Source: an uncultured Clostridia bacterium
Lineage (GTDB): Bacteria > Bacillota > Clostridia > Christensenellales > UBA1242
Length of the DNA: 64,000 nt
Direction of reading: 5' to 3'
NCBI GenBank assembly: GCA_934746645.1
Contig: CAKVFE010000001.1
Location: forward strand, 588,626-652,625
Part shown: positions 468 through 60,182 of the stretch, piece by piece
Numbering within the stretch: the stretch's first letter is position 1
Layout: each line of letters opens with the position of its first letter
Program-made: the position numbers and the translations under genes
Notes under the pieces: model-generated
Told to the model about the DNA's origin: nothing
Seen by the model: the letters and a program-made list of their open reading frames with translations, nothing else
Database searches by the model: none

Positions 468-549
468 AAAAATAAATCCAAAAATCACTACCATATTAGT
501 TGAAAATTTGATACAATATTGTCTGTGATTTAAACAAAGGAGAAGAATT

Positions 550-1068: not shown

Positions 1069-2157
1069 TTATTGTTTTTCATCTTGTGTAGTATTTTCTA
1101 AATCTATATTAGTATTGTCTACTTTATCTTCTTTTGTACCTACTTCAACTAATGTAGTATCATTAGTTTTTTCTTTTGTATTAAGAGTGTCGCCTGCAAC
1201 ATTTTGTTTTGGTTGTTTTGACTTTCTTGTCTTTTTAGGTTTTGTTACTTCTTTACCTTCGGTTTCTTTTTGTATCTCTTCTACAGTACTCCACGCACCA
1301 ATAACTTCTGATACTTTAGTCAAATATACAAACGCTTGTGGGTCTATCTCTTTTATTATACTCTTCAATTGTCCCATTTGGTATCTACTAGCAAGACATA
1401 CCAATTGACATCTATCACTTTTACTGTGCATACCCTTAACTTGTGTACAAGTGCAACCTCTAGCAAGTTTATCCATAATTGCGTCTGCCAACTCATTAGG
1501 TTTGGTTGTGACAATACTAAATGCTCTAACTTGTTTGTATCCTTCATTGACAAAGTCAGTGATAAGCATACTAAGTACCAACGCAATAATTGTGTATGGC
1601 AACAATCTTATACCATCTGCAAAAGTAATAGTTGATAGTAAGATAATAAATGTATCTATACATATCATAAGAGTACCAATAGTTGCATTAGGTTTTTTCT
1701 TCTTTACAATACAAGCTATCATATCAGAGCCACCAGTCGAACCACCAAATCTTACTACAAGTCCAACACCTACACCCATAATAGCGCCACCATAAATAGC
1801 AGATACTAAAAGTTCAAATGTTGTGTTAAGATTGAGATAACTAAATAGTTCCATACTCAATGAGAATGAAAAAATACCTATAAGTGCTTTTATTGCAAAT
1901 CTTTTACCAAGTGTCTTTAGTGCTAAGAAATATAGTCCAATATTAAGTACCAAATATATAGCTGATGTAGGAACATTTTTTAGTCCTATCTTCCCTAACC
2001 AAACACTTATAACCATAGACAATGCAGAAAATCCACCAGTGGATATTTCGTTGGGTTCTAGGAACACACTAAACGCAAATCCCATAACGACTGTGCCAAG
2101 CACCACCATAAGTATCTCCAACCATAATTGCCATTTTCTACTTGCTTTTATATACAT
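1069..2157 (-). CDS. YitT-family membrane protein (DUF2179 C-terminal domain) with Lys/Thr-rich tail
   Basis: Multi-TM N-terminal part with 'GGFSALSMV' and 'GGSTGGSDMIA'. A soluble DUF2179-like part 'FSIVTTKPNELADAIMDKL..GCTCTQVKGMHS' follows. The last ~70 aa are low complexity. Confidence 0.75.
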   Translation of the reverse strand: MYIKASRKWQLWLEILMVVLGTVVMGFAFSVFLEPNEISTGGFSALSMVISVWLGKIGLKNVPTSAIYLVLNIGLYFLALKTLGKRFAIKALIGIFSFSLSMELFSYLNLNTTFELLVSAIYGGAIMGVGVGLVVRFGGSTGGSDMIACIVKKKKPNATIGTLMICIDTFIILLSTITFADGIRLLPYTIIALVLSMLITDFVNEGYKQVRAFSIVTTKPNELADAIMDKLARGCTCTQVKGMHSKSDRCQLVCLASRYQMGQLKSIIKEIDPQAFVYLTKVSEVIGAWSTVEEIQKETEGKEVTKPKKTRKSKQPKQNVAGDTLNTKEKTNDTTLVEVGTKEDKVDNTNIDLENTTQDEKQ

Positions 2158-2359
2158 AATACACTCTCCAAATAATTTTGCCGTAAGATTATAACACGAC
2201 TTTTATTTAAAAACAATGGCGAAATAAAAATATATTTATAATTATTAATATGTATACTTTAATAAAATAAAAAAATAATTTAATTATAGCCAATATATTA
2301 AGCTAATGACTTGTTTTACTTTTATAATAAGTTATGATACAATACGGTCTGGTGAAAAT

Positions 2360-4345
2360 ATGAAAAAGAAAATAATAATATACACAGTATCAATAATTGC
2401 TTTTCTTGCTATAGCAATAGTAAGTATTATTGGTGGAATCAATACACACAACAAAAAAGTGTTAAAACAAGAACTTAATAATTTGATCGAAAGTTATGAT
2501 GCAAACGAAACACTGTCATACAAAAATTATCTTATCAATAGCGCACATACCAATGTAACTGACAACAATGGTAAGTATACCTTTAATTATAAAAACAAAC
2601 AGGTAACAATAACCGAAGACAAGATTGTTAAGATATCCAACACAACTGTACCAAAATATGACTATAGTTTTGATAGTGTGGAAGATATGGTAAGTAGTCC
2701 AAAACTAAAGGTTGATGATATAGTATATGTAAAAAGTTATTATAAAAATAAAAACATTGGTGGCGGATACTACACAATAGTTAATGCTAGAGATGACAAT
2801 AGTTATTGTATAGATTTAGACTTAGGCCTTGTAGCTCAACTTAAAGTATACGACAAAACAATATATGTAAGTCAGTTGGGAGCTTATGCAGACGGAAAAA
2901 CCGATGACCATACAGCAATACAACAAAGTATAGATTTATGTGGAGAAAATATAGACACTATCATATTTGATAAAGGCAACTATCTATGCAATGACTATAT
3001 AGACATAATCAATGTTAGCAATATCAACATTATCGGCAACAACAGTACAATAATTGTTAATGACCAATTTAACAATGTCGACACTGGCGAATTTTTCTTT
3101 AATGTATATGGTAGTGAAGATATACTAATAAGTGGTCTTAATATCAATTATGATTTTAACCAACAAATGCGTGGTATACGCACACAGCTAGTCATCAACG
3201 CTTCTGACAATATCGAATTGTATGGTTGCAAACTTACCATACCAAAAAGTCTAAGAGAAGTAAGTCAAGTTGGATACACCAATATAGACTGTTACTCTGA
3301 CTGGCACAACATAATAATCAACAACTGCACATTTACCAACTACTGCGATTGTGAAGAAGGTGGCGGAATGTGGATAAGAGATTTACACAACAAAGGTTGT
3401 GACAATATAAAAGTTGTCAATTCTAGTTTTACTAAAGTTGCACACGACGAAATACTTGCTGTATTTATGGGACAAATATCAAATGTTCTTATCAAGAACA
3501 ATACTTTCAATGTTCCAGATACTGGGTTATCTTCCAGTGTAATGAATTTTACTTTAGGAAGCAGTAGCAGTGTTCAAGCTGAAAACATAACATTTTCAGA
3601 CAACACCATTGATGCATCTTCAACAGGTGGATTGATATGGTCTAAAAACACTAAAAATCTTGTAGTTAAAAACAACAATATCAAAACTAGATTAAGTAGT
3701 AAAGCTGACGGAAGCAATACTCAAAGTCATTTTAGAGTATTTGAATCTCAAAGCAATAGTGACGGAGTAACTAAGAAAATAAATTCTATTGAAAACAACA
3801 CCATTGAAGTATATTCTTATCTTGACACATACAATTTTCAATACAAAATATTTTCAAATATCAACAATGTTAAGTCCAACAACATAACAATTTATCCTAA
3901 AGTAACCAATATATTTATTGGCTGTGACAATGTTATCAACAACAAAGTAACCAGTAATAGTGATGTTGAATTTGTGTCATACAACACTACAACCAAATTT
4001 TCCAACAACTCAGTAATATTGAAAGGATACACAAGTTGTATGTTTAGGTGGTATGGTTATACTCTTAACAAAATGATAACTTGTTCCAACAACTCCATCA
4101 ACTACCAATATGTTGAAAGTGAAAAATCTTCTTGTATCGTTATGATTAACAATACAAAGTTTGTAAGCAACACTATCGACTTTAACAACAATCTTATTGC
4201 AGGCACAACATTATCTCCACAAACTCGTCAATTGTTTGTCGTAGCTGATGACGAAAAAGAACAACAATTTTTGTTTAAGAACAATATTGTTACCAACTAC
4301 CCTGACCGTAACTATGTTGTCAATGCTCAAATTGTTAAAGATTAA
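2360..4345 (+). CDS. membrane-anchored right-handed beta-helix (pectate-lyase-fold) protein, Asn-rich
   Basis: Start moved to the ATG at 2360 (MKKKIIIYTVSIIAFLAIAIV signal anchor). 'YVSQLGAYADGKTDDHTAIQQSIDL' matches the N-terminal motif of pectate_lyase_3/tailspike-like beta-helix proteins. Many repeated 'N-I-x-V/I-x-N-N' turns. Confidence 0.6.
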   Translation: MKKKIIIYTVSIIAFLAIAIVSIIGGINTHNKKVLKQELNNLIESYDANETLSYKNYLINSAHTNVTDNNGKYTFNYKNKQVTITEDKIVKISNTTVPKYDYSFDSVEDMVSSPKLKVDDIVYVKSYYKNKNIGGGYYTIVNARDDNSYCIDLDLGLVAQLKVYDKTIYVSQLGAYADGKTDDHTAIQQSIDLCGENIDTIIFDKGNYLCNDYIDIINVSNINIIGNNSTIIVNDQFNNVDTGEFFFNVYGSEDILISGLNINYDFNQQMRGIRTQLVINASDNIELYGCKLTIPKSLREVSQVGYTNIDCYSDWHNIIINNCTFTNYCDCEEGGGMWIRDLHNKGCDNIKVVNSSFTKVAHDEILAVFMGQISNVLIKNNTFNVPDTGLSSSVMNFTLGSSSSVQAENITFSDNTIDASSTGGLIWSKNTKNLVVKNNNIKTRLSSKADGSNTQSHFRVFESQSNSDGVTKKINSIENNTIEVYSYLDTYNFQYKIFSNINNVKSNNITIYPKVTNIFIGCDNVINNKVTSNSDVEFVSYNTTTKFSNNSVILKGYTSCMFRWYGYTLNKMITCSNNSINYQYVESEKSSCIVMINNTKFVSNTIDFNNNLIAGTTLSPQTRQLFVVADDEKEQQFLFKNNIVTNYPDRNYVVNAQIVKD

Positions 4346-4445: not shown

Positions 4446-5426
4446 CTATCTGCCCATATTTAAACTATCTTCTGCAAATTCTTTAAAACATTCTACCATA
4501 TCTGGATTTTCTTTTAATAGTAATTGGGATATCTTTTCTACCATTTCATCACTTGTCAAAAGTTTAACTCTCTTTTCTGCCAACTCTCTTTTGCCTTTTG
4601 GTGCATTTTCTGGATTTAATGGTTCGAATCTTGTACCAATATTTTTTAGATAAATTTTCAAATCGTTTACATTTGCAATCTTATTTTTCTCTAAAAAATC
4701 GAACACTCTAACTGAATAGAAAGTTTCCGTATTTTGCTCTGGGGCAAAGTAACCCACATATTCGTTATCATTTTCAAAAGATTTGTTAGAAGCAACAAAA
4801 CCTATTCTTGGTAATCTAAATTTATAAATAAGTGGAATCATAAATGAATAATAATTATTTGCTTCTTTCATTCCAGCCAATTCTAATGGAAGTTCTCTTA
4901 AAACTTTATGCTCATTAGTTGGATTATCATAAAAATCATCAGGAACATTTTCTCTAATTCTTTTATTATTCATATATTCGGCAACATTCATATATTGCTC
5001 AAATATATCCATTTCATTCTCATTAAATGACTCGTTAATATACTTACCTACAGTTTCTAAGTATCCAGATCCAAACTCAACGAAATCACCATCACCACGA
5101 ACAACTTCTTTTAAATCTGTCATTCTCATTCCGTTTTTAAATAAATACTTTTCAAAACCTTCGCTTGCTGAAGTTATAAAATAATCAACATGGGTCTTTT
5201 TGTTTAACTCATCATAAGACTTAGTTTGGGCTTCTTTTAAAGCAACCGATTCTTCCATATTGTGATAAAATAACAACGAATTATAATGTGCTATTTTACC
5301 TGGACAAAGTTGAAGTCTTTCAGGTATCTCATAGATTTTAGAAGATTCCATAGCATCTTTTAATCCTGAAAGAGTTCTTTGTGTAAGTTCATAAAATTGT
5401 TTGGCTGTTTCTCTATCTATTGCCAT
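4446..5426 (-). CDS. hypothetical cytoplasmic protein (326 aa, no family recognised)
   Basis: Long ORF with SD 'aggtgag' (reverse complement of 5430-5436) and non-repetitive composition. No TM or signal sequence and no motif I recognise. Confidence 0.6.
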   Translation of the reverse strand: MAIDRETAKQFYELTQRTLSGLKDAMESSKIYEIPERLQLCPGKIAHYNSLLFYHNMEESVALKEAQTKSYDELNKKTHVDYFITSASEGFEKYLFKNGMRMTDLKEVVRGDGDFVEFGSGYLETVGKYINESFNENEMDIFEQYMNVAEYMNNKRIRENVPDDFYDNPTNEHKVLRELPLELAGMKEANNYYSFMIPLIYKFRLPRIGFVASNKSFENDNEYVGYFAPEQNTETFYSVRVFDFLEKNKIANVNDLKIYLKNIGTRFEPLNPENAPKGKRELAEKRVKLLTSDEMVEKISQLLLKENPDMVECFKEFAEDSLNMGR

Positions 5427-5512
5427 AACTCACCTCTATTAGCAATTAAAAATTAAATTATATTCTATACTTAATATTATAATCTAGTCTAATTAAAAAA
5501 TCAATAAGCCTT

Positions 5513-5551
5513 AAATAAAAAAGTTTTAAAGCAAATACTTGCTTTAAAACT
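5513..5551 (-). terminator. intrinsic terminator (13-bp stem) between the two unknown genes
   Basis: AGTTTTAAAGCAA (5522-5534) / TTGCTTTAAAACT (5539-5551), loop atac. On the minus strand it is followed by a U-rich run (complement of 5512-5521). Confidence 0.75.
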
Positions 5552-5558
5552 ATAAATA

Positions 5559-9672: not shown

Positions 9673-10592
9673 TACAACGCACCTCCAAAATCTTTGTCTT
9701 CTTTATAATACTTCATAAAGTAATCTTCCAATGTTTCTTTTAGATGTTCAAAACCTACAACATTGGACTTTGACAAAGCAAGTATAAGTTCGTTGATGTT
9801 TTTGTCGTCAACATTAATAAGTGTTTGATTGTCGCTATGTTTTACAATAGTAAAGTTTTTATTGTCCTTATTATCATTATCAAACTTTTCACTATCTTCA
9901 ACACTAGCAAAATCAACCAAATAGTTTTTATTATTGTTGTGTTTTAAATCGTCAGCTATAAACTCCGAAACTATCTTTCCGTCTTTAATAATAGCTATAC
10001 GATCACAAGTTGCATCAACTTCGCTAAAAATGTGACTGGACAACAATATTGTTTTGCCACGCTTTTTCTCTTCTTTTATAAACTCAATAAATACTTGTTG
10101 CATCTTTAAATCTAGTCCACTTGTTGGCTCATCTAAGATAAGTATGTCAGGGTCATTCATAAATGCAGTTACTACTGCAAGTTTTCTTTTTATTCCCAAA
10201 CTCATACGCTTAGTATCTCCACTAGGGTCTAGCTCGAAAAGTTGTAACAAATGATTAAGCCATGTGTCGTCTGTAACATGTTTAAGTTTTTTCATCATAT
10301 CCAAAAACTCATATCCATTAAGACCTTCTGGCAATGCAATTTCGCCCGGTAGATATCCTACCTTATCCATAAACTTGTCATAGTTGTCAAAACTATCCAT
10401 ACCAAGTATTTTTGTTTTTCCACTATCTGGACGGCTAAATCCCATTAGATGTCTTATGGTTGTAGATTTACCAGCACCATTTGGACCTAAAAATCCGTAT
10501 ACTTCGCCAGCATTGATACTAAAAGATATATCAAAAACGCCACGGCCATGACCATAATCTTTTGTAAAATGTTCTACTTCAATTTTTGCCAT
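9672..10592 (-). CDS. ABC transporter ATP-binding protein (second ATPase)
   Basis: Start moved to the Met of 'MAKIEVEHF' (10590-10592), preceded by SD GGAGGAAAG. Walker A 'GPNGAGKSTT', signature 'MSLGIKRK', Walker B 'ILILDEPTSGLD'. Confidence 0.9.
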   Translation of the reverse strand: MAKIEVEHFTKDYGHGRGVFDISFSINAGEVYGFLGPNGAGKSTTIRHLMGFSRPDSGKTKILGMDSFDNYDKFMDKVGYLPGEIALPEGLNGYEFLDMMKKLKHVTDDTWLNHLLQLFELDPSGDTKRMSLGIKRKLAVVTAFMNDPDILILDEPTSGLDLKMQQVFIEFIKEEKKRGKTILLSSHIFSEVDATCDRIAIIKDGKIVSEFIADDLKHNNNKNYLVDFASVEDSEKFDNDNKDNKNFTIVKHSDNQTLINVDDKNINELILALSKSNVVGFEHLKETLEDYFMKYYKEDKDFGGAL

Positions 10593-10749
10593 TCTTTCCT
10601 CCCATAAATAATAGACAGATGTATATTTTCTTGACATCTGTGGTATTATATGATAACTTTATAAAAAATTCAACAAAGTTATTTTACTGGACAACTTGTA
10701 TTGTAAGATATTTTACACTTTTGACAATTTGTCTAAAAAAGGAGTTATT

Positions 10750-19495: not shown

Positions 19496-20065
19496 ATGAA
19501 AACACTACTTGTAGATGTTGATGAAGTTATTTGTCACCCAACATTAATAGATGAGATAAACAAATTTTTACACACCAACTACCGTCTTAACGATTTTACC
19601 GAATATTATATTGATGATGTTTTGGGTTCGGACGAAAACAAACAAAAGTTTTATGAGATAATCAAAGATAAAAATATGTATGAAGATGCAGTCCTACTTG
19701 ACGGTGTAACAGACGCACTAAAAAAATTGAGCAAAGAGTACGACATCTACATTTGTAGTGCTTGCGCTATGTTTTGTCTTTTAAAAGAAAGTGGAATATA
19801 TTTTAAATACAAGTACGATTTTTTAATCAAAAATTTTCCGTTCTTAAATCCAGAACATTTTATATTTACAGGTGGCAAAAATATATTTAAAGCAGACGCA
19901 ATGATTGATGACCGACCAAAAAATCTTATGGGAGATATTGGCACACGCATTATGATGTTATCTTATCACAATAGAGATATTAGCGATGAAGAACTAAAGA
20001 AAAACAATATTATCAAAGTTTCTTCGTGGGCAGAGATAGAAGATATATTGTTAAATAAAAATTAA
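19496..20065 (+). CDS. HAD-type 5'(3')-deoxyribonucleotidase-like protein
   Basis: N-terminal 'LLVDVDEVI' (DxD nucleophile motif) and C-terminal 'MIDDRPKNL'. Confidence 0.5.
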   Translation: MKTLLVDVDEVICHPTLIDEINKFLHTNYRLNDFTEYYIDDVLGSDENKQKFYEIIKDKNMYEDAVLLDGVTDALKKLSKEYDIYICSACAMFCLLKESGIYFKYKYDFLIKNFPFLNPEHFIFTGGKNIFKADAMIDDRPKNLMGDIGTRIMMLSYHNRDISDEELKKNNIIKVSSWAEIEDILLNKN

Positions 20066-20135
20066 AACGATTTTTAACTTTTGTATTGACATTAAATCAA
20101 AAAAGTTGTAAAAATATTGCAAGGAGATAAAAGCA

Positions 20136-20174
20136 ATGACAAAATTATTTGTAACTCTACATCATCATAGTTAA
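20136..20174 (+). CDS. candidate leader peptide MTKLFVTLHHHS (His x3)
   Basis: SD AAGGAG 20121-20126, 9-nt spacer, ATG 20136, CAT CAT CAT at 20160-20168, TAA at 20172-20174. Overlapping alternative hairpins and a terminator follow immediately. Confidence 0.5.
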   Translation: MTKLFVTLHHHS

Positions 20175-20178
20175 TCTA

Positions 20179-20278
20179 TACTTGCTGATTATATACGGCA
20201 AGTACCTTTAACTATGCCGTTATAGAAGTTACTATATTTTGTATTTTTATCAACGGCGTCTTGCCGTTGATTTTTTTT
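20179..20278 (+). promoter_or_regulatory. candidate transcription attenuator (alternative hairpins S0-S4)
   Basis: Segments: S0 TACTTGC 20179-85, S1 ACGGCAAGTA 20195-204, S2 TGCCGTT 20215-21, S3 AACGGC 20252-57, S4 CTTGCCGTTGAT 20260-71. The pairings S0:S1, S1:S2, S2:S3 (or S1:S4) and S3:S4 are mutually exclusive. Confidence 0.5.
20249..20278 (+). terminator. intrinsic terminator inside the 5' leader of the M20/hisS operon
   Basis: ATCAACGGC (20249-57) / GCCGTTGAT (20263-71), loop gtctt, then T8 at 20271-20278. Lies 96 nt upstream of the next start codon. Confidence 0.8.
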
Positions 20279-20373
20279 GATTTAGAAAATCCAACAATAT
20301 TGATTTTAATATTTTAACCCAGATTAATTAACGGCAACAAAAATATTAATAAATTAAAAAAAGGAAAACAAAA

Positions 20374-21462
20374 ATGGATAATCTAAATTATTTAAAAGAC
20401 TTAGTCAAAATAAAATCATACGACACTAAAACATCAAATAAACAAATAACCGAATATATAACCAACATATTTAAGTTAAACAATATTCCATACCAACTTC
20501 TTCGCAATCCAGACGGAATACTATCTAGCATAGTTGCTGGTATCAATAATAACTTAAATAATGTCAATGACGCTATAATACTTTCAGGACACATTGACAC
20601 AGTTGCTCCCAACAATTTGTGGGACACTGACCCTAATACCATAAAGATAGATGGTGACATAGCTTATGGTCTAGGCATAATAGATATGAAAGCTTTTACA
20701 TCTACTATCTTAAACAACATTGACAATCTTAAAAAATTGCAAAAGCCAATAATTATAGCTTTAAGTTGTGATGAAGAAACAGATATGTATGGTATAAAAG
20801 AGATTGTAAAATACTTTAAGCAAAACAACATCAATGGCAAATATGCTATCATTGGCGAACCAAGCAATAGTTGTCCAGTGGTGGGAAGTAAAGGATTTTT
20901 TGAATCCGAAATAACTATCACCGGCAAATCTTGTCACTCAAGTATGCCCTTTAACGGAACTAATGCAATATATATTGCTTCAAAAATTGTCGCAAAACTT
21001 GAAGAATTGTCGTTGCAGATTGGTAAAGACACTCTAAATGTTGGTATTATTAATGGTGGAACAGTGTGCAATATTGTTCCGGATAAATGCACTATTAGAT
21101 ACGAAATTCGCACTTTTTCCACAAAAACTTTAGACTTTATCAACAACCAATTAAATAAATTGTTTATTGATTTGGAAAAAAACTATATTGGTTGTACAAT
21201 TAATTGTAATTTGGTTTTTAGCATACCACCTTTTCAAGAAAAGATAGATGACACTACCAATAAAATAATTGAGTATTTACAACAACCAACATCTATATAC
21301 GGAGCGTCAACCGAAGCTGGGTATTTTCAAGAATTGGGTATGGGTGCTATAATTTGGGGAGTGGGAGATTTAAAATATGCTCACAAACCTAACGAGCAAA
21401 TGTCTATATCCGAATATAACGAGTATCAAAACAAATTTTTAGAGATATTAAAAATACTATAA
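20374..21462 (+). CDS. M20-family metallopeptidase/deacylase (ArgE/DapE-like)
   Basis: 'LSGHIDTVAP..W..DP', 'AYGLGIIDMKAF' and 'LSCDEETDMYG' are the metal-ligand motifs of the M20 family. Confidence 0.8.
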   Translation: MDNLNYLKDLVKIKSYDTKTSNKQITEYITNIFKLNNIPYQLLRNPDGILSSIVAGINNNLNNVNDAIILSGHIDTVAPNNLWDTDPNTIKIDGDIAYGLGIIDMKAFTSTILNNIDNLKKLQKPIIIALSCDEETDMYGIKEIVKYFKQNNINGKYAIIGEPSNSCPVVGSKGFFESEITITGKSCHSSMPFNGTNAIYIASKIVAKLEELSLQIGKDTLNVGIINGGTVCNIVPDKCTIRYEIRTFSTKTLDFINNQLNKLFIDLEKNYIGCTINCNLVFSIPPFQEKIDDTTNKIIEYLQQPTSIYGASTEAGYFQELGMGAIIWGVGDLKYAHKPNEQMSISEYNEYQNKFLEILKIL

Positions 21463-21478
21463 ACAGGAGAATATAAAA

Positions 21479-22813
21479 ATGAGTATTATCGAACCAAAAA
21501 CTCTACCGGGTACAATGGAACTATTACCTAAAGAGCAAATATTATTTAATGAAATAAAATCTAAAATACAAAATGTATATGAGTCTTTTGGATTTTTGCC
21601 ATTGGATACACCTATCATTGAAAAATCAGATGTTCTTTTAGCCAAAGCTGGTGGCGAAACCGAAAAGCAAATATACAGATTTACTAAAGGCGACAACGAC
21701 ATTTGTTTGCGTTTTGACCTTACTGTTCCTTTAGCAAAATATGTTGCTGCCAATATAAACGAATTGGAATTTCCTTTTAAAAGATATCAAATAGGAAAAG
21801 TATATCGTGGAGAAAAACCACAAAAAGGCAGATACAGAGAATTTTATCAATGCGACATTGACACTATTGGTAAAGACACATTGTCTATTAAAAATGACGC
21901 CGAATACCCTGCCGTAATCTATTCTATATTTAAAAGTTTAGACTTTGGCGATTTTACTATTATGCTAAACAATAGAAAAATCATCAATGGGTTGTTTGAA
22001 GAACTTAACCTATCTAGTCAAAAAGAAGACATTATGCGTCTTATAGACAAATTTGACAAAATGGGAAAAGACAATGTTGTGGCTTGCCTATTAGATGATT
22101 ACAAACTTGACCAAAATACTTGCGATAGACTTATCAACTTTTTAACATTTGAAGGTACTACTGATGAAAAACTAGATATGCTAAAGAATGCTGGTTTTTC
22201 AAGTGAAATATACAACACTGGTGTTAGCGAGCTAGAAGAAGTTATAAAATGTGTAAGACTTCAAGGTGTACCAGACAAGTACTTCAAAATCAAACTAACT
22301 ATTGTTAGAGGTTTGGACTACTACACAGGTACTGTATACGAAACAATCCTTAACGATTATCCTAACTTAGGTAGCGTTTGTGGTGGTGGAAGATACGACA
22401 ACCTTGCAGGTTTTTATACCGAACAAAAACTTCCAGGGGTTGGTATAGCTATTGGTATCACTAGACTATTCTATCAACTATGTGAAAACAATCTTATCAA
22501 AGCATCAAAATCTAGCATTGCCGAAGTATTGGTATTGCCTATGGACGACAACGCTATTGAAAAAGGTTATGCTGTAGCAAGCAAGTTAAGACTTAGTGGT
22601 ATACCTTGTCAGTTGTATTTAGAAGACAAAAAGTTTAAAAACAAAATCAACTATGCTGACAAATTAAAAATACCTTATGTAGTAATTATTGGCGAAGACG
22701 AAGTAAACAACAACTATGTTACTTTAAAAGATATGTTTAACTTTAGCCAAGAAAAAGTAGAAGACTTAAAACTTGTAGATACAGTTAAAGAAAAGATAAA
22801 CAACTCAAAATAA
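21479..22813 (+). CDS. hisS: histidine--tRNA ligase
   Basis: 'LRFDLTVPLAKYVA' (motif 2 region), 'YRGEKPQKGRYREFYQCD' and 'CGGGRYDNL' (HisRS signature), plus a C-terminal anticodon-binding domain. Lies 16 nt after the M20 gene. Confidence 0.9.
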   Translation: MSIIEPKTLPGTMELLPKEQILFNEIKSKIQNVYESFGFLPLDTPIIEKSDVLLAKAGGETEKQIYRFTKGDNDICLRFDLTVPLAKYVAANINELEFPFKRYQIGKVYRGEKPQKGRYREFYQCDIDTIGKDTLSIKNDAEYPAVIYSIFKSLDFGDFTIMLNNRKIINGLFEELNLSSQKEDIMRLIDKFDKMGKDNVVACLLDDYKLDQNTCDRLINFLTFEGTTDEKLDMLKNAGFSSEIYNTGVSELEEVIKCVRLQGVPDKYFKIKLTIVRGLDYYTGTVYETILNDYPNLGSVCGGGRYDNLAGFYTEQKLPGVGIAIGITRLFYQLCENNLIKASKSSIAEVLVLPMDDNAIEKGYAVASKLRLSGIPCQLYLEDKKFKNKINYADKLKIPYVVIIGEDEVNNNYVTLKDMFNFSQEKVEDLKLVDTVKEKINNSK

Positions 22814-22919
22814 ATTCAATATCTGCTTATGCTAAAAAATAATTGTTTTTTTAGCGTAAGTGTGTATTGACTTAGATACAATCATTGTGATATTCTTATG
22901 GGTAATAGAGGTTAAAATT

Positions 22920-25422: not shown

Positions 25423-26004
25423 TTATTTTTTGTTATCAGTTTTGGAATAATCAACAGCATTATTTTTAGAGCAATCAACAAAACTAAAGTTTTTGTTAAA
25501 CTTTACATAATACCCAAGTCCAACTACTATATCTTTTTTGCAAAATACATAATCAGTCTTTGTCTTGTTGTCTTCAATATAACTTATCTTATAAAAGTTG
25601 TAACCAAAGATATTGAGAAAAGGATTGATATAAAACAACTGGTTTTTGATATACACAATACCTATCATAACAATAATAAACACAAAGACTACTGCCATAT
25701 TGACTTTAGACAAATCAAAAGATACAGCCGACAAAACAAACAAAGAAAAGTACCCTAAAAAGTGTTGGTCTGTGATATTGTTACTTTCTACAATAGTCAC
25801 ATAAGTACTTTTTAGTTGGTCGTCATATATTATTTTAAATGTTCCAAAACTACCCACAATAATAACAATTATTAACAAGATAAAAAATGTCGTATTAAGG
25901 ACATTGAAAGTTAGATTGTGATTGATTATATCCAAAACAAGTTTAACCCACAATAAAAAATACATAGGTATAAACGCCGACAAAAATAAAAATATCTTTT
26001 TCAT
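25423..26004 (-). CDS. integral membrane protein (hypothetical)
   Basis: Four hydrophobic spans followed by a soluble C-terminal ~70 aa. Confidence 0.55.
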   Translation of the reverse strand: MKKIFLFLSAFIPMYFLLWVKLVLDIINHNLTFNVLNTTFFILLIIVIIVGSFGTFKIIYDDQLKSTYVTIVESNNITDQHFLGYFSLFVLSAVSFDLSKVNMAVVFVFIIVMIGIVYIKNQLFYINPFLNIFGYNFYKISYIEDNKTKTDYVFCKKDIVVGLGYYVKFNKNFSFVDCSKNNAVDYSKTDNKK

Positions 26005-26954: not shown

Positions 26955-29588
26955 TTAAATTTCGTCATTGTTGTCTTCGGTGTTTTCACTGCTTTCAGCG
27001 TCAACTTCTGTGTCCATATCTAAATCTGCATTTTCTTCTAATGCAGGTGCTGGAGCAACTGGAGTTTCTTCCAAACTTTCAGCCAATTCTTCTTCAGCTT
27101 CTTCGCTAGGAGTTACAGCAACACAAACTATCTTAGCGTCATCTTTTAGACTCATTACTTTAACACCTTTTGTGTTACGACCAATAATGCTTATTTCGCT
27201 TGCTTTGATACGAATAATTGTACCATCATCAGCAATCATCATTACATCGTCTTTATCAGTAACTTGTTTTAGATTTACTAGGTTGCCAGTTTGTTCGTTA
27301 AATACGCCTGCTTTAATACCTTTACCTGCTCTACCTTGTACTCTATAGTCGTCTTGACTAGAACGCTTACCATATCCTTTTTCAGATATAGTCAACATAT
27401 AAGCACCCATCTTAATAACAGACATATCAACTACATATTCGTTTTCGTCTAAGCTTATAGACTTAACACCTTGAGTATCACGACCCATAATACGAACAGC
27501 ACGCTCGTTAAATCTTATACATTTACCAGTGCTACTTGCAATAATAATTTCGTCATTGCCGTGTGTAATATATACACTAATCAATTCGTCATTTTCAAGT
27601 AGTTTGATAGCAATCTTACCACCCTTTCTAATACTATCAAATTCGGAAATATTGGTTTTCTTAATTAGGCCTTGTTTTGTAGCCATAACTAGATATCCAA
27701 TAGTATCTGGTTTAACTGGAATAATTGTTGTTATACGCTCTTCTGGACTTAGTTGAAGTAGATTGATTATTGCTCTACCTTTACTTGTTCTTGGAGCTTC
27801 TGGAACTTCGTAACCTTTAATACGATATACTCTACCAAAACTACTAAAGCATAGTAAGTCATCATGAGTAGATGTAGTAAATATGTTTTCTACAAAGTCT
27901 TCTTCTTTAGTGGTATGAGCTATTATACCTTTACCACCACGATGTTGACTCTTGTATTCGGATACAGGCATACGCTTAATATATCCACCGTGAGTTAAAC
28001 TAATAACAACTTCTTGTTCTTCGATTAAGTCAGCAATATCTATATCACCAAAGTCTGTACTAATCTCAGATTTTCTTGGTTCGCCATATTTTTGTTTGAT
28101 TGTAAGCAAGTCTGTCTTAATAATGTTAAGTAGTTTGTCCTTATTGGCAAGTATACTTTGTAACTCAGCAATTAGTGCGTGAACATCAGCCAAATCTTGT
28201 TTAAGTTTTTCAACTTCTAGACCTGTCAATCTTTGCAATCTCATTTCTAGTATTGCAACAGCTTGTTTTTCAGTAAGCAAGAATCTTTCCATCAATTTGG
28301 TTTGAGCTTCTACTTTATCATTACTTTCTTTGATAGTCTTTATTACTTCGTCAATATTAGCTTGAGCAATCATAAGACCTTCTAAGATATGTGCTTTAGC
28401 AAGTGCTTTATCTAGGTCGAACTCAGTTCTTCTAGTAATAACTTCTTCTTGGAACAACAAGTAGTTTTGAAGTATTTCTTTTAAGTTAAGTATTTTTGGT
28501 GCATTGTTGACCAACGCCAAATTGATAACACCAAAACTTACTTGCAACTGACTATGTTTGTACAATGTGTTAAGTACAACTTGTGGGTTGGCATCTCTCT
28601 TTACATCAATAACAATACGAAGACCTTGTCTATCACTTTCTTCTTTGATATCACTAATACCATCAATACGCTTATTTTTTACTAAGTCAGCAATTTGCAT
28701 AATAAGTTTTGACTTATTAACTTGATAAGGTATTTCGGTAACAACAATACGATGTCTTGTACCATTGTTAAATTCTTCAATCTCACATTTACTTCTGATT
28801 ATAAATGTTCCTCTACCAGTACGGTATGCTTGGCGTATACCACTACGACCCATAATGATACCACGAGTAGGAAAATCTGGTGCAGGTATAATCTTAATAA
28901 GGTCATCAATATCCATATCTGGATTATCAATAAGTGCTACACAACCATCAATAACTTCACTTAAATTGTGAGGTGGAATATTGGTAGCCATACCAACTGC
29001 TATACCGTCACTACCATTAACTAACAAGTTAGGGAATCTAGCTGGCAATACACTTGGTTGAACTTCACTATCATCAAAGTTAGGGATAAAGTCAACTGTG
29101 TTTTTGTCTATATCAGCCAGCATTTCAGATGCAACTTTACTTAGTCTTGCTTCAGTATAACGCATTGCTGCTGGAGGGTCACCGTCCACAGAACCAAAGT
29201 TTCCGTGTCCGTCAACAAGTGGAGCATTAATAGTAAAGTCTTGTGCAAGTCTTACCAAAGCATCATATACAGCTGTGTCGCCGTGTGGGTGATATTTACC
29301 AATAACATCGCCGACTATACGAGCACATTTTTTATATGCTTTATCATTAAACAAGTTAAGTTCGCCCATAGCATAAAGTATACGACGATGAACAGGTTTT
29401 AGCCCATCTCTTACATCTGGTATAGCACGGCTTACATTAACTGCCATTGCATAAGCTATAAAAGATTTTTCAAGTTCTTCCTTAACTTTAATATCCAATA
29501 TTTTTGTATTATCTATATGATTAGTTAAATTTTCATTTTCTGTATTTTGATTATTAACTATCTTATCGTTATCTTTTTCGTTTTCCAT
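26955..29588 (-). CDS. gyrA: DNA gyrase subunit A
   Basis: '[21 protein letters not shown]', 'GKYHPHGD' and active-site region '[10 protein letters not shown]', with beta-pinwheel C-terminal repeats and an acidic tail. Confidence 0.97.
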
Positions 29589-29673: not shown

Positions 29674-31617
<1,944 letters not shown>

Positions 31618-32139: not shown

Positions 32140-33987
32140 TTATTCTACTGTTACTGATTTTGCTAGGCTTCTTGGTTTGTCGGGATTGTTGCCCAATTTT
32201 AGACTAGTAAAATAAGCTATTAGTTGCATATACACTACTGCAACAAGTGGAACATACTCTTCGTCTACATTAGGTATAATTATTTCTTTAAATATTTTGT
32301 TTTCATAATTAAGTTTGGTGCGACTTAATACTATAACTTTACCACCACGAGTAGTAACTTCGTTGATGTTGCTTAGTGTTTTTTCTTTTACCATTTCTTG
32401 TGTCACAAAAGCAAAAACAAATTGGTCTTTATCTATTAGCGATATTGTTCCGTGTTTAAGTTCGCCAGCTGGATATGCTTCACAATGGATATAAGATATT
32501 TCTTTCAATTTTAGACTTGCTTCTAGTGCCAAATAATAATCCAAATTACGACCTATCATATATATGCTTTGACTATCTTTAATATTGTCTGCAATCTGAT
32601 TACATAAGTCCGTGATTTTGTTGTTTTTTATTATATTGGATACATTGACAAGATTTTTGCTTTCTTCAAGTATTATATCTGTATTGTCTGTATGCACTGC
32701 ATTGATATATGCCGACAAAAGATAAAACATAGCACATTGACAATTGTATGCTTTAGTACTTGCTACAGCGACTTCTTTGCCTGCTGATGTATAAAGGCAA
32801 TAATCAACTTCATAACAGATACTACTATTTTTTACATTGGTTATAGCAACAGTAGTAAGCCCATACGCTTTACTCATTTTTACTGCTTTTATAGTGTCTG
32901 CAGTTTCGCCACTCTGACTTACAAAAATAGCTAAAGTGTTTTTATGTGGTTTGAAGTTGTTGTATCTAAACTCACTGGCTATCTCAACATCGACTTTTAT
33001 ACCACATCTATTTTCAATTATTCTTTTACCAATAAGTCCTGCGTGATATGCTGTTCCACAACCAATAATCAATATGTTTTTAGTCTTCTTAATTACCGAT
33101 TTAGGCAATGCCTTTTTTATTTTGTCAAAACTATTATATTTGACTACAGTATTAACAATACCTTGTGGGATTTCGTTGATTTCTTTAATCATATAATGGC
33201 TATATTGTCCCAACGGATTGTCTACAATAGTGTTATCTTTTTTAACCTTTTCAAGTTTAAGAAGTTGTAAATCTTTATCAAATATACTTACGCTCCCTTT
33301 TTTTACTACAGCATAACTATAGTTGGGCAAAATATACAGACTATCTACTCCTTCTACACTATTGATATCCGAACACACAACACCACAATTTTTACCAACA
33401 CCAACCACACAAGGACTATTGGATTTAGCTACAAATATAGTATCTGGTTGTCTATTGTTTAATATTGCAAAAGCATAACTTCCGACTATACGGTCACAAA
33501 CATTTTTAATAGTGTTTAGGATATCTCCATCAAAAGACTTACTCAATAATTGGGCTATAACTTCGGTGTCTGTATCACTAGAATATTTTGCGTTGCCAAC
33601 TTCTTTTTTAAGGTCAAGATAATTTTCTATAATTCCATTATGCACAACAACCCAATTACCATTTTCGCTATAATGTGGGTGAGAGTTATTTATACTTGGT
33701 ACACCGTGTGTAGCCCACCTTGTATGACCTATAGCTATATCACTAGTGGGATTTAGATTATCCAAAATATGTTCTAGTTTGCTTATCTCACCTTTTTCTT
33801 TTATTATGTTAAGTCCATTGCCAAAAGTAAATACATTATTTTTGTATTCTTTTTTGTCTTTCAAACCAAAACTATAACTAAAAAATCCTATTCCACTCGA
33901 ATCATATCCACGATACTCCAATTTTTTAATTCCGTTTAAAGTTTCGGTTATGGCATTGTGACCTACATAACCATATATTCCACACAT
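32140..33987 (-). CDS. glmS: glutamine--fructose-6-phosphate aminotransferase
   Basis: Start taken at 'MCGIYGYVG' (Cys nucleophile). Two SIS domains and a C-terminal '..AKSVTVE'. Confidence 0.95.
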   Translation of the reverse strand: MCGIYGYVGHNAITETLNGIKKLEYRGYDSSGIGFFSYSFGLKDKKEYKNNVFTFGNGLNIIKEKGEISKLEHILDNLNPTSDIAIGHTRWATHGVPSINNSHPHYSENGNWVVVHNGIIENYLDLKKEVGNAKYSSDTDTEVIAQLLSKSFDGDILNTIKNVCDRIVGSYAFAILNNRQPDTIFVAKSNSPCVVGVGKNCGVVCSDINSVEGVDSLYILPNYSYAVVKKGSVSIFDKDLQLLKLEKVKKDNTIVDNPLGQYSHYMIKEINEIPQGIVNTVVKYNSFDKIKKALPKSVIKKTKNILIIGCGTAYHAGLIGKRIIENRCGIKVDVEIASEFRYNNFKPHKNTLAIFVSQSGETADTIKAVKMSKAYGLTTVAITNVKNSSICYEVDYCLYTSAGKEVAVASTKAYNCQCAMFYLLSAYINAVHTDNTDIILEESKNLVNVSNIIKNNKITDLCNQIADNIKDSQSIYMIGRNLDYYLALEASLKLKEISYIHCEAYPAGELKHGTISLIDKDQFVFAFVTQEMVKEKTLSNINEVTTRGGKVIVLSRTKLNYENKIFKEIIIPNVDEEYVPLVAVVYMQLIAYFTSLKLGNNPDKPRSLAKSVTVE

Positions 33988-34077
33988 ATTCACTCCTTAT
34001 TATGTTAATAATATTTTCTATGCGTAAAATATTTTTTTTGATAGACTTTTTTAGCAAGTTTAGTCTTGCATTTTAGT

Positions 34078-34112: not shown

Positions 34113-35207
34113 ATGGAAATAAAAAGTATTCAGTTAAAAAATTTCCGTAATTATACTTCTCAGCAAGTTAATTTTAAAAACGGACTTAATATTTTAGAAG
34201 GCAAAAATGCTCAAGGTAAAACCAATTTACTAGAAGCAATTTTTTTGTGTGCTATTGGTAAAAGTCCTCGTACTAAGAAAGAAAAAGAACTTGTAAAATG
34301 GAACGAAAATATGGGTAAGGTTACGATAGAATTTTCCAAACTTACCGGTAATAAAAAAATAGAGTTGTATTTGTTTTCTAATCAAAACAAAGCTATAAAA
34401 ATAAATGGCGTTCCTATAAAAAAATTGGGCGAACTTATGGGCGAACTTAATGCAATATATTTTTCGCCAGACGAACTTAAACTTGTCAAAGAAAGTCCAG
34501 AAGAAAGAAGACGCTTTATGGATATAGACTTATGTCAATTTGATAAGAGATATTTTTATACTCTCAACAAATACAACAAAATCCTAGACCAGCGTAACAA
34601 ACTTTTAAAATCTGGCAACAATCAAAGTATAAAAGATACTATCAGTATCTGGAACGAACAACTTGCCGAACAAGCTTGTTATATCATTATTAAAAGACTT
34701 CAGCTTGTCGAACAACTAAAAATTTATGCCGAAAAGGCACATTATTATTTGACCGACAACAACGAAAAAATGACATTGGAATATGTTGGACTTAACACTG
34801 TAGACAAAGACACCTTAAAACAAGAACTTCTTAATCTATATGATAAGAGTTTAGAAAAAGATTTAAATCTTGGATTTACTACAGTTGGTCCACATAGAGA
34901 TGACTTAAAAATATCTGTCAATGATATAGATGTAAGACATTTTGGTAGTCAAGGTCAACAGCGTAGTTGTGCATTGAGTCTAAAACTAGCCGAATTGGAG
35001 ATATTTAAGTCCAACCTTAAAGAATATCCAGTCCTATTATTAGATGATGTATTGAGCGAATTAGACCTATCTAGACGAGAAAAATTACTAAAGATAATCA
35101 ATAATTTTCAAACTATACTTACTTGTACCGAATACAATATTGATTTGCCTGCCAATGTATTAAAAGTTGATAGTGGCAAAATTGTTGATAGTTATACACA
35201 AAGTTAA
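34113..35207 (+). CDS. recF: DNA replication/repair protein RecF
   Basis: 'LKNFRNY', Walker A 'GKNAQGKTNLLEAI', signature 'GSQGQQRS', Walker B 'VLLLDDVLSELD'. Confidence 0.93.
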   Translation: MEIKSIQLKNFRNYTSQQVNFKNGLNILEGKNAQGKTNLLEAIFLCAIGKSPRTKKEKELVKWNENMGKVTIEFSKLTGNKKIELYLFSNQNKAIKINGVPIKKLGELMGELNAIYFSPDELKLVKESPEERRRFMDIDLCQFDKRYFYTLNKYNKILDQRNKLLKSGNNQSIKDTISIWNEQLAEQACYIIIKRLQLVEQLKIYAEKAHYYLTDNNEKMTLEYVGLNTVDKDTLKQELLNLYDKSLEKDLNLGFTTVGPHRDDLKISVNDIDVRHFGSQGQQRSCALSLKLAELEIFKSNLKEYPVLLLDDVLSELDLSRREKLLKIINNFQTILTCTEYNIDLPANVLKVDSGKIVDSYTQS

Positions 35208-36840: not shown

Positions 36841-37941
36841 ATGAAATTAATTTGTGATGGTTTGGATTTGTCCGATGCAGTTATGAAAGTCATAAAAGCA
36901 ACTAGTCAAAAGACTACTAATCCAGTACTAGAAGGTATCAAACTTGTAGCTGAAGATGATACACTAACATTAAGTGCTACTGACCTAGAACTTTCTATGG
37001 AAAAAAGTATTAAAGCCGAAGTATTTATTGATGGCGAAACAGTTGTACCGGGTAAATTTTTTGCAGAGTACATAAAGAAACTTACCAACGAACAAATCGA
37101 ACTTACCTGCAACGAAAGAAATATGTTGGAGATAAAGTATACAGATAGTACTGGTAATATCCAAGCGTTAAGTGCTGAAGAATTCCCTACTATGAAAAGA
37201 CTTGAAAATGCTGAGTATTTTGAGATAACATCTAAAGATTTAAAATCTCTTATTACTAAATCAGTATTTTGTGTATCTACAGAAGATAGTAGACCAATAC
37301 TAAAAGGTGTATTGTTTGAGATATCTGATAAGAAGATAAAAGCAGTTGCACTAGATGGTTATAGACTTGCTATGGTTAATAAAGACCTTATCAATAGTTC
37401 TTCCAACTTTACTTGCATTGTTCCTGCTAGAAGCTTAAACGAAATAAGCAAACTTTTGGAAGACAGTGACACAGTTATTAAAGTACATGTAACCAAAAAT
37501 TATTTAATGGCAGATGTCAACGATACTAAGATAATAACAAGATTGTTGGAAGGTGATTTTATCAATTACAAACAAATCATTCCTACACAATTTACAACCG
37601 AAGTTACTATCAACAAAGCTCAACTTGAAGATGCCCTAGATAGAGCAAGCCTACTTAGTCGTATAGACAGAAACAACTTAGTTAAGTTTGATATTACAGA
37701 CAAACTTATGATGTTGAGTAGTAAGAGTGATATTGGAGATATTAAAGAAAACATTACAGTTGCTCTTACAGGTAATGATTTAACAATTGCATTTAATGTA
37801 AGATACTTTAATGAAGCATTAAGAGTTATTAATGACGAATTTATCAAACTAAGCTTTACTGTTCCTTCTGCTCCTTGTATTTTAAAGAGTAGCGAAACAG
37901 ACGAATATGTATATCTAATACTTCCTGTTAGAGTTGTTTAG
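36841..37941 (+). CDS. dnaN: DNA polymerase III beta sliding clamp
   Basis: 366 aa with SD 'aaggagag'. 'RPILKGVLFE', 'LDGYRLA' and C-terminal 'YLILPVRV'. Confidence 0.95.
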   Translation: MKLICDGLDLSDAVMKVIKATSQKTTNPVLEGIKLVAEDDTLTLSATDLELSMEKSIKAEVFIDGETVVPGKFFAEYIKKLTNEQIELTCNERNMLEIKYTDSTGNIQALSAEEFPTMKRLENAEYFEITSKDLKSLITKSVFCVSTEDSRPILKGVLFEISDKKIKAVALDGYRLAMVNKDLINSSSNFTCIVPARSLNEISKLLEDSDTVIKVHVTKNYLMADVNDTKIITRLLEGDFINYKQIIPTQFTTEVTINKAQLEDALDRASLLSRIDRNNLVKFDITDKLMMLSSKSDIGDIKENITVALTGNDLTIAFNVRYFNEALRVINDEFIKLSFTVPSAPCILKSSETDEYVYLILPVRVV

Positions 37942-54105: not shown

Positions 54106-54277
54106 TGTAGTCGTGTAGTAAAAAAACGATTAATTACGACATTTTTTGTAATAAGTAATATATAATTATTTGTATACAATATATTATATTTATAATTAAG
54201 AATTGCTAATTAGTGTACAACCCAAAAAAAATGTGTTAGAATTATTAGGCATTAAACAAAATCGGAGGATAATACTT

Positions 54278-60041: not shown

Positions 60042-60182
60042 ACGATTGGAATTTTACAATTGTTAAAAAGATAAAAATAGTTATTAAATTTGTAGCGAAA
60101 TTGTTGGCGATATTATATATTTAATTTTCAAAAAAACTTTATTTGTGATATTATATTGTATATCAAAAATAAGGAAACTAAT

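Follow-up and report, generated by a model that had tools for sequence, protein, structure and literature searches.

A candidate histidine-sensing leader-peptide attenuator upstream of an M20 metallohydrolase gene and hisS in an uncultured Clostridia bacterium

Organization of the leader-M20-hisS locus

The 64-kb stretch of contig CAKVFE010000001.1 considered here (assembly GCA_934746645.1, from an uncultured Clostridia bacterium), referred to throughout as the window, carries a leader region between an NT5C-type nucleotidase gene (19496-20065) and genes encoding an M20 metallohydrolase and histidine--tRNA ligase (hisS). The leader begins with a 12-codon open reading frame (ORF) that contains three consecutive His codons, followed by a set of complementary RNA segments (S0 to S4) and an intrinsic terminator (Table 1). 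An earlier note, made from the letters of the DNA, had proposed that this is a ribosome-mediated attenuator read through His codons, and the proposal is supported by conservation in relatives, by the absence of matches to Rfam models and by constrained RNA folds. The coordinates that it gave for the Shine-Dalgarno sequence (SD), the ORF, the His codons, S0 to S4 and the T8 run are all correct and can be read directly in the sequence.

The leader likely has its own promoter, which is the top promoter-like site in a scan of the region (10 of 12 positions match, plus the TG). Its TTGACA box, 18-nt spacer and TGtAAAAAT box are unchanged in L001 (L-numbers denote loci from related contigs), a locus with another upstream gene and divergent intergenic DNA around the promoter, and a TTGACA-N17/18-(TG)-10 arrangement is conserved in all relatives. 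This removes an initial doubt about the promoter, under which the leader might have been read through from the upstream gene. Judging from promoter geometry, transcription would start at ~20121-23, placing the SD at the 5' end of a 5' untranslated region (UTR) of ~14 nt; the SD is kept in L001/L009/L093, and translation of the ORF is predicted from these elements. As expected of a leader-peptide attenuator, a short ORF with its own start codon and His codons lies between promoter and structural gene. Comparable His-rich mini-ORFs (8-16 codons, at least two adjacent His, at most two codons from the stop) occur in six of 2000 dinucleotide shuffles of the window region.

The first regulated gene encodes a protein that falls below every ArgE/DapE equivalog cut-off and is a member of the superfamily. 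Its best NCBIfam match is acetylornithine deacetylase (TIGR01892; 217 bits versus a cut-off of 297.7), and it scores 220 versus 412 against PRK07522 and 167 versus 217.6 against the DapE-ArgE subfamily; its closest Protein Data Bank sequences are ArgE and DapE. The hisS gene starts 16 nt past the M20 stop codon and the terminator scan called no plus-strand terminator between the two, so they are presumably co-transcribed. Past the end of hisS lie an A/U-rich hairpin of 14 bp (22826-22860) and then, at 22867, another promoter-like site (TTGACT). An internal hisS promoter candidate at 21324-53 (TG-TATAAT) was set aside, as it lies in a conserved coding stretch where conservation is uninformative.

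Table 1. Features of the leader locus, its counterparts in related contigs and other genes of the window (positions of leaderless-type leaders refer to the promoter and start-codon arrangement)
Sequence	Feature	Position	Strand	Remarks
Window	Putative leader promoter	20086-20115	+	-35 TTGACA 20086-91; 18-nt spacer; extended -10 TGtAAAAAT 20107-15
Window	SD	20121-20126	+	AAGGAG; 9 nt before ATG 20136
Window	Leader ORF	20136-20174	+	MTKLFVTLHHHS plus stop, 12 codons; TAA 20172-74; doubles as RNA pairing segment 1
Window	His codons, predicted regulatory	20160-20168	+	CAT CAT CAT
Window	S0	20179-20185	+	TACTTGC
Window	S1	20195-20202	+	ACGGCAAG
Window	S2	20215-20221	+	TGCCGTT
Window	S3	20252-20257	+	AACGGC
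Window	S4	20260-20271	+	CTTGCCGTTGAT
Window	S0:S1 hairpin	20179-20204	+	UACUUGCUG/CGGCAAGUA; 20179-87:20196-204
Window	S1:S2 anti-antiterminator	20190-20224	+	20190-93:20221-24, 20195-200:20215-20, 20201-03:20211-13
Window	Antiterminator (extended S2:S3)	20214-20259	+	20214-21:20252-59, 20222-29:20243-50, 20231-32:20241-42; sequesters terminator 5' arm
Window	Intrinsic terminator S3:S4	20249-20279	+	20249/50-57:20263-70/71, then T8 20271-78
Window	S5, third core copy	20324-20337	+	TTAATTAACGGCAA; 46 nt past U-run, 36 nt before M20 ATG
Window	M20 metallohydrolase gene	20374-21462	+	Pfam Peptidase_M20 and M20_dimer; ArgE/DapE deacylase family; first regulated gene
Window	hisS	21479-22813	+	TIGR00442, 405 bits versus cut-off 286.75; Pfam
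L001/L009/L093	Leader ORF			MTNLFVTLHHHS
L004	Leader ORF	1207-1238		MKGYIINLHHHR; leaderless-type start
L089	Leader ORF	553-586		MENDLKKICNLHHHS; leaderless-type start
L010	Leader ORF	2329-2361		MNKLNFLHHHI; leaderless-type start
L005-8	Leader ORF	522-553 (L006)		MSKKINKGHHCK; leaderless-type start (L006)
L094	Leader ORF	~2186-2220		(GTG)KNFNLIHHHHI; leaderless-type start
L095	Leader ORF	~2300-2335		MKRELFYNLHHHEI; leaderless-type start
L017	Leader ORF			MNFLGTIMLHHWHF
L012	Leader ORF			MFNSFNLWHWHK
L014	Leader ORF			MFYSLVLWHS
L015	Leader ORF			MFNSVMFLHHKN
L019	Leader ORF			MFNLFMFWHHE
L090	Leader ORF			MLKSFRRHS
L092	Leader ORF			MSKFVLRHHR
L011	Leader ORF, aberrant			MYNLMFSWHRRIRLRT
L005	YgjV-GNAT synteny	1443-2830
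L010	YgjV-GNAT synteny	1007-2282
L094	YgjV-GNAT synteny	859-2191
L095	YgjV-GNAT synteny	1014-2319
L006	tRNA-His(GUG)	3714-3790		3' of hisS
L009	tRNA-His(GUG)	4965-5040		3' of hisS
L095	tRNA-His(GUG)	5475-5552		3' of hisS
L093	tRNA-His(GUG)	1104-1176	-	3' of hisS
Window	gyrA	26955-29588	-
Window	gyrB	29674-31605	-
Window	glmS-like	32140-33993	-
Window	recF-like	34113-35207
Window	dnaA	35284-36627
Window	dnaN	36841-37941
Window	ftsH	54203-56692
Window	argS	60156-61892

Alternative structures of the leader RNA

The leader RNA can adopt mutually exclusive structures. Pairings among S0 to S4 had been recognized in the earlier note; they are real but longer than it stated, comprising 9 bp for S0:S1, 13 bp for S1:S2 (4+6+3) and 18 bp for the antiterminator (-16.4 kcal/mol). 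The antiterminator and terminator share 20250-59, while S1:S2 and a pairing of the ORF with downstream RNA (20139-74:20208-42) share 20208-42 with the antiterminator, such that the leader contains both an antiterminator/terminator alternative and an upstream competitor of the antiterminator. S1:S2 is present when the RNA is folded with a forced terminator under a stop+12 mask (-25.1 kcal/mol). The intrinsic terminator stands between leader ORF and regulated gene, as attenuation demands, and was called independently by a scan (20249-71; 10 pairs, 5 G-C, loop of 3, plus T-run) that found four terminator-like sites in 3.6 kb versus 1.1 expected. A repeat search recovers S1:S4 (8/8), S3:S4 (9/9), the direct repeat shared by S2 and S4 (TGCCGTT) and ACGGCAA at S1; AACGGC has two copies in the 64 kb, both inside the leader region.

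The RNA as a whole is highly structured, with 20110-20290 folding at -49.6 kcal/mol compared with -27.2 +/- 3.7 for dinucleotide shuffles (z = -6.0; 0/200 as good). In the ribosome-free minimum free energy (MFE) structure, one long hairpin is followed by the terminator (20250-57:20263-70), for a total of -44.8 kcal/mol. This hairpin consists of helices H1 (20139-45:20236-42), H2 (20151-59:20223-32), H3 (20166-74:20208-16; CAUAGUUAA:UUAACUAUG) and H4, which is S0:S1 (20179-87:20196-204). The leader ORF therein pairs with the 5' half of the antiterminator, and its 5' two-thirds form a pairing segment. Shuffling the codons of the window ORF costs 11.5 kcal/mol (z = -5.2; 0/100 as good), and complementarity of the ORF to the downstream region reaches z of -2.9 or lower at 10 of the 15 loci modelled. 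In L001, a synonymous change from CTA to TTA is matched by a change from UAGAAG to UAAAG in the partner strand.

Such extensive pairing raises an alternative in which control is independent of translation. A ligand, tRNA or protein would bind the leader RNA, in the manner of a riboswitch, T-box, HutP or TRAP system, and the mini-ORF would be incidental to conserved pairing such as CAUCAUAG:CUAUG. The His codons do lie in a helix (H3), the structure is far more stable than expected from composition, and T-boxes are the usual regulators of aminoacyl-tRNA synthetase genes in Bacillota (PMC2965389). However, the window contains no Rfam match at gathering score, no T-box or His_leader match occurs in 19 related loci, and no other riboswitch model scores on either; the earlier note had likewise seen no T-box signature. 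A permissive scan of 19900-20500 (E <= 10) returned sub-threshold, terminator-shaped noise without a T-box or His_leader, the best of it a terminator-shaped DapZ match of 25 bits, where the gathering score is 56. TGG does not occur in 20136-20279, and hence there is no UGGN or UGG to which a tRNA 3' end could pair, and the two UAG triplets present do not amount to a HutP-type repeat. Moreover, the reading frame is kept where the RNA diverges, with a start codon, 9-15 codons, in-frame His codons, a stop codon one or two codons on and either SD or leaderless placement. Translation-independent control is accordingly very unlikely.

A further copy of the core, S5, follows the terminator and is recovered by the repeat search; it is the sole additional AACGGC/ACGGCAA in the 64 kb. 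S5 is complementary to S4 and the start of the T-run (20261-72) at 11 of 12 positions and, with its 5' flank, imitates S3. L001/L009/L093 retain S5 as CACGGCAAAA, and it is missing from L004 and L089, whose terminator abuts the SD. An S4:S5 hairpin is present in the MFE of the window and L001, with z of only -1.8 and -1.6; S5 might capture S4 after read-through. Two other candidate pairings were dropped, namely a UAUUGC/GCAAUG hairpin around the SD in a first fold, which is not conserved in L001 and lies 5' of the predicted start, and a match between 20271-93 and the first M20 codons (20375-97; 23 nt, 74% complementary), which seemed to covary with L001 but occurs in neither MFE.

Conservation of the leader in related lineages

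Relatives were gathered through the M20 protein, by fetching contigs and by scanning one genome per species; the M20-alignment scan of genome contigs returned mostly distant actinobacterial genes, and only L009-L019 were relevant. Close relatives of the protein are few (99%, 72%, then at most 50% identity), and the informative loci lie in metagenome-assembled genomes (MAGs) that carry the labels Christensenella sp. UBA6345, Clostridia, Bacilli or Ca. Onthoplasma, the named ones being Christensenellales according to NCBI. The contig of the 46%-identity relative L004 opens with part of a 16S rRNA gene (1-725, minus strand; gene positions 1-732), ~500 nt 5' of the leader promoter, which could place this lineage taxonomically.

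The leader layout is found directly 5' of the M20 orthologue in 16 distinct loci (35-73% protein identity) and consists, in order, of a promoter close to consensus (TTGACA-N17-TAnAnT), a 9-15-codon ORF, a hairpin, further complementary segments and a terminator with a U-run. In every relative, the promoter (TTGACA, TTGACT or TTGATT with an N17/18 spacer) has its -10 box directly 5' of the leader ORF. Leader ORFs contain one to four His codons, and in most loci a single codon separates the last of them from the stop. Three M20 orthologues (L013, L016, L097) lack the leader. A strict mini-ORF, defined as a frame of 8-16 codons in which two or more His codons are adjacent and the final His lies no more than two codons from the stop, is present in 11 of the 15 modelled loci (window included), compared with 0.15-1% of dinucleotide shuffles of the same regions. 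RNA sequence, in contrast, is not conserved across loci: ORF and His codons are kept down to 36% M20 identity, and the 16 loci that retain them, which answer the question of conservation raised by the earlier note, include at least four unrelated RNA cores (ACGGCAAG/CUUGCCGU, GCAACAC/GUGUUGC, ACGGCACA/UGUGCCGU and CAAAACAU/AUGUUUUG).

What is shared at the RNA level is architecture. A hairpin equivalent to S0:S1 begins 0-6 nt past the stop codon in all 15 modelled loci, in at least four different sequences; helices equivalent to S1:S2 and the antiterminator are likewise present in all 15, a terminator with a U-run separates leader and M20 gene in every modelled relative, and the two-state helix set (A:B + C:D versus B:C + D:E) is recovered in 15/15. 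Covariation is argued from this architecture, as a MAFFT alignment of the four closest leaders misaligns S0. A metagenome search with an RNA-only pattern (ACTTGC..GCAAGTA..CTATGCCGTT) retrieved one contig, L093, which carries the same leader as L001/L009 and adds no diversity.

Six relatives (L004, L089, L010, L006, L094 and L095) place the start codon, ATG and once GTG, 6-9 nt past the -10 box with no SD, and their leader peptides would be translated from leaderless mRNAs. In one subfamily, Trp codons adjoin the His codons (LWHWHK, LWHS, FWHHE, SWHRR.. and LHHWHF in L012, L014, L019, L011 and L017), and in another Arg codons do so (RRHS and RHHR in L090 and L092); TGG and CGN are rare codons at 30% G+C. 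These neighbours may reflect co-sensing of Trp or Arg, or a nascent-peptide effect. The L011 leader (2329-2500) is aberrant in that its ORF continues past W-H and its last hairpin (CCACCGCC..GGCGG) lacks a U-run and ends beside the SD of the M20 gene; this leader may attenuate translation instead of transcription, or may be a copy in decay.

These comparisons bear on an account without regulation, in which the terminator is constitutive and ends a small RNA or NT5C read-through, M20 is expressed from another promoter, and the pairings are chance products of AT-rich DNA. The window leaves some scope for this, with ~95 nt from the U-run to the M20 start and weak promoter-like matches such as 20354-82 (9/12), as does L094, with 150 nt plus a TTGACA past the terminator. 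The terminator directly abuts the M20 SD in L004, L006, L010, L015, L089 and L092, however, leaving no room for a promoter. The leader also tracks the M20 gene despite changing upstream neighbours (NT5C, GNAT, ASCH and mTERF genes), and neither the ORF complementarity described above nor the uniform response to ribosome position described below is expected by chance. Constitutive termination is therefore scarcely credible.

Ribosome position and the terminator decision

The ribosome was modelled as a mask extending from the RNA 5' end to 12 nt past the first base of the A-site codon, masks for successive positions being nested. The terminator advantage was taken from the best fold with the terminator forced versus the best with the terminator 3' arm blocked. 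It replaced a first metric, the probability that the first 8 nt of the terminator 5' arm are paired in a truncated transcript, which gave 0.82, 0.87 and 0.86 and did not separate the states. In the window, the terminator advantage is 10.0 kcal/mol without a ribosome and 7.1 kcal/mol with the A site on the start codon, then falls to 2.4-2.7 kcal/mol at codons 3-6, 0.1 kcal/mol at Thr7 and -0.4 kcal/mol at Leu8; it is 0.4 kcal/mol at each of His9, His10 and His11, before rising to 3.4 kcal/mol at Ser12 and 8.7 kcal/mol at the stop codon. In these models, the His codons are thus the last stall positions permitting antitermination, since the balance tips back one codon further on. This fall and rise occurs in 15/15 modelled loci (window included), albeit with nested masks, and the His codons occupy the 3' edge of the permissive zone in the window and in L001, L004, L089, L006, L094, L095 and L017. 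The modelled His-stalled state comprises S0:S1 and the antiterminator, and the modelled stop state S1:S2 and the terminator. The switch is hence thermodynamically feasible and dependent on ribosome position.

Together with the sequence elements and their conservation, these folds indicate that the leader is probably a ribosome-mediated transcription attenuator responding to charged tRNA-His. Transcription would proceed from the leader's own promoter, ~14 nt before the ORF, and expose the five segments in the order S0, S1, S2, S3, S4. When His-tRNA is scarce, the ribosome would stall with CAU in its A site, covering the ORF to ~20172-78 and leaving S0 free. S0:S1 would then form, as it would with a ribosome at any position up to the His codons, and hold S1 off S2; S2 and its 3' extension would pair with S3 once made, the terminator would be blocked and polymerase would read into the M20 deacylase gene and hisS. 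When His-tRNA is plentiful, the ribosome would reach the stop codon and mask S0, S1 would pair with S2, and S3 would be left to pair with S4, ending transcription at the U8 run. If the leader is untranslated or the ribosome is released, the ORF would pair with 20208-42 to give the long hairpin, the tip of which is S0:S1, and the terminator would reform. Confidence in this exact order of folding events is evenly divided. The logic of stalling versus reaching the stop codon had been outlined in the earlier note and is reproduced in the masked, constrained folds, except that, in the window, the stop mask without further constraint yields an MFE other than the terminator.

Several observations weigh against this reading. 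In the window, the antiterminated and terminated states are isoenergetic at best (-27.2 versus -27.6 kcal/mol), antitermination never being favoured, and therefore the outcome must be set by the order of synthesis, that is by kinetic, 5'-to-3' control; both this control and the response to histidine are predictions of the model. Under the stop mask without other constraint, the MFE of the window RNA is S1:S4 enclosing the antiterminator (-26.9 versus -25.1 kcal/mol), with a terminator probability of 0.16; as long as S4 has yet to be made, the antiterminator beats S1:S2 by 3.3 kcal/mol. Termination at high histidine therefore probably also depends on the ribosome being released and the ORF pairing again with 20208-42. 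In a second subfamily (L012-L019, L090 and L092), the terminator advantage never drops below 4 kcal/mol, wherever the ribosome stands, and is smallest a few codons 5' of the His codons. The His codons number only three in the window and one or two in some relatives, and their conservation could be partly due to RNA pairing (CAUAG:CUAUG). The SD would be at the extreme 5' end of the predicted transcript, and the host is known from metagenome assemblies only. In addition, RNA polymerase is reported to move ahead of the ribosomes in B. subtilis and its relatives (PMC13323073), and a polymerase pause would therefore be needed for ribosome-coupled attenuation; none was identified.

The same folds admit a variant in which the leader depends on the ribosome without being specific for histidine. 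It would report slowed translation in general, or more than one amino acid (His together with Trp or Arg), since stalling anywhere in the final third of the ORF would give antitermination. In the window, the terminator advantage is low across A-site codons 7-11 (T, L, H, H, H) and not at His alone, Trp or Arg directly precedes His in several relatives, and some relatives have a single His codon. Yet His is the one residue that no leader lacks, and it invariably marks the 3' edge of the permissive zone; the window's own subfamily has three or four consecutive His codons, and the linked genes are hisS and tRNA-His. A non-specific sensor is accordingly unlikely.

Comparison with known leaders

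The candidate attenuator is a known kind of switch and not a new mechanism, representing a new family with a new target gene. In the his leader of Salmonella and E. coli (RF00514), consecutive His codons precede a hairpin relay (A:B-E:F) and an intrinsic terminator, with stalling at the His codons leading to antitermination and absence of translation to termination (PMC9413887). The present leader shares the short His leader peptide, the relay of alternative hairpins and the terminator, and its segment relay resembles the six-segment Salmonella leader. There is, however, no sequence or structure homology, the covariance model being matched neither in the window nor in the 19 related loci. It also differs in having three His codons and not seven, one codon before the stop, in targeting a deacylase gene and hisS and not a his biosynthetic operon, and in belonging to a Clostridia lineage in which several relatives are leaderless.

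Closer precedents come from Bacillota. His leader peptides are predicted upstream of hisZ and a hisS paralogue (hisS*) in bacilli (PMC2965389) and upstream of his operons in the B. cereus group, Peptostreptococcaceae and Erysipelotrichales (PMC9413887). The earlier note had set this layout against a T-box norm in Bacillota; there is indeed no T-box here, but the two surveys show that His leader attenuators were already predicted in the phylum. These are of the same kind, with 3-5 His codons and a short ORF immediately 5' of attenuator, antiterminator and terminator hairpins, and one regulates a hisS paralogue. In the Peptostreptococcaceae examples of PMC9413887 (Additional file 6), a CUAUGAUG segment complements the His-codon CAUCAUAG, as CUAUG does here, and a comparison by eye with the legible sequences of that file revealed no shared motif. 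The present leaders differ in coming from Christensenellales-like MAGs, in having a shorter ORF with His beside the stop, and in targeting an M20 gene of the ArgE/DapE family where theirs precede biosynthetic or hisZ/hisS* genes; the words 'M20' and 'peptidase' are absent from the text of the 2022 survey (PMC9413887).

The polycysteine attenuators of mycobacteria comprise leaderless short ORFs, in which a regulatory mini-ORF senses Cys through a codon run (bioRxiv 10.1101/834739). Six relatives resemble these in the placement of the start codon, being leaderless by promoter geometry only. The mycobacterial systems are actinobacterial and Cys-specific, whereas the window copy has an SD and a 5' UTR. 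Attenuation of an aminoacyl-tRNA synthetase operon by its cognate amino acid is exemplified by the Phe-rich leader peptide of E. coli pheST, which is proteobacterial, Phe-specific and unrelated in sequence to this leader; here, in contrast, the synthetase is the second gene and not always in the regulated unit in relatives. T-boxes, which usually regulate hisS in Bacillota, allow read-through of a terminator upstream of this gene in response to uncharged tRNA-His, which is the same regulatory task with the same terminator/antiterminator output. Unlike a T-box (RF00230, not matched), the present leader has no Stem I, specifier, T-box sequence or UGGN, and sensing would use the ribosome.

T-boxes and protein repressors dominate in Bacillota, where transcription-translation coupling is thought to be weak. 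The leader adds a divergent 16-member family, absent from Rfam, to the short list of amino-acid-sensing leader-peptide attenuators in this phylum. Its members also form a compact natural set of very small attenuators (9-15 codons, 1-4 His, SD-led or leaderless, four RNA cores), which should help in working out how the position of the ribosome becomes a decision for or against termination.

Target genes and possible physiological role

Gene arrangements at the relatives' loci, determined with tblastn, fall into three types. The leader-M20-hisS order occurs in the window, L001/L009/L093 and L004; YgjV-GNAT-leader-M20-(small opposite-strand gene)-hisS occurs in L005/6, L010, L094 and L095/96; and leader-M20 with no hisS within 2.5 kb occurs in L011-L019, L090 and L092. 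Where separated from M20, hisS has its own promoter and no leader. The leader stays with M20 while hisS is separated or absent, and the conserved target is therefore the M20 gene. Co-regulation of M20 and hisS, suggested in the earlier note, fits the operon layout of the window but is not general, and hisS would be co-regulated only where fused to the M20 operon. This arrangement provides a functional lead for the M20 deacylase, the expression of which is predicted to rise when His-tRNA is scarce.

A tRNA-His(GUG) gene lies directly 3' of hisS in several relatives (Table 1) and is absent from this position in the window and its 99% relative, L002; the linkage of tRNA-His and hisS supports a histidine-related role of the M20 enzyme. 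A YgjV-family membrane protein gene (PF10688) and a gene for a 261-269-aa GNAT acetyltransferase are found in conserved synteny immediately 5' of leader-M20 in the second type of arrangement, and the juxtaposition of acetyltransferase and deacylase genes hints at an N-acyl-amino-acid cycle. In L013, from a 'Bacilli' MAG, the M20 orthologue, which lacks the attenuator leader, lies directly 3' of a gene with a tryptophanyl-tRNA synthetase-like C-terminus by eye (~2080-2500), which would be another link between this M20 clade and an aminoacyl-tRNA synthetase.

It is possible, though rather doubtful, that these elements make up a histidine-starvation regulon in low-GC uncultured gut Clostridia. 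The M20 enzyme would then be a His-liberating deacylase or dipeptidase acting on N-acyl-His or Xaa-His, within a salvage module that comprises hisS, tRNA-His and, in relatives, the adjacent GNAT and YgjV-type membrane protein. The very short and often leaderless ORF would be an adaptation for ribosome-coupled attenuation in bacteria where polymerase normally outruns the ribosome.

Other features of the window

The window has 30% G+C and covers a replication-origin neighbourhood; yidC, mnmE, mnmG and ychF are present in addition to the genes of Table 1. No tRNA gene occurs anywhere in the 64 kb, and no leader ORF, terminator or T-box was found upstream of argS. A second frame ending in LHHHS and a stop codon (55683-55697, minus strand; CTG CAT CAC CAT AGT TAA) was rejected as a chance match, being antisense inside ftsH and without a terminator, and serves as a caution against pattern-only searches. 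Beside gyrA, the 99%-identical contig L002 carries a 193-aa gene (10058-10639; window 25423-26004, minus strand) with a precomputed Pfam match to PF28043 (KwaA, a Kiwa defence-system component), and a HicB-like antitoxin gene is located at the left end of the same contig.

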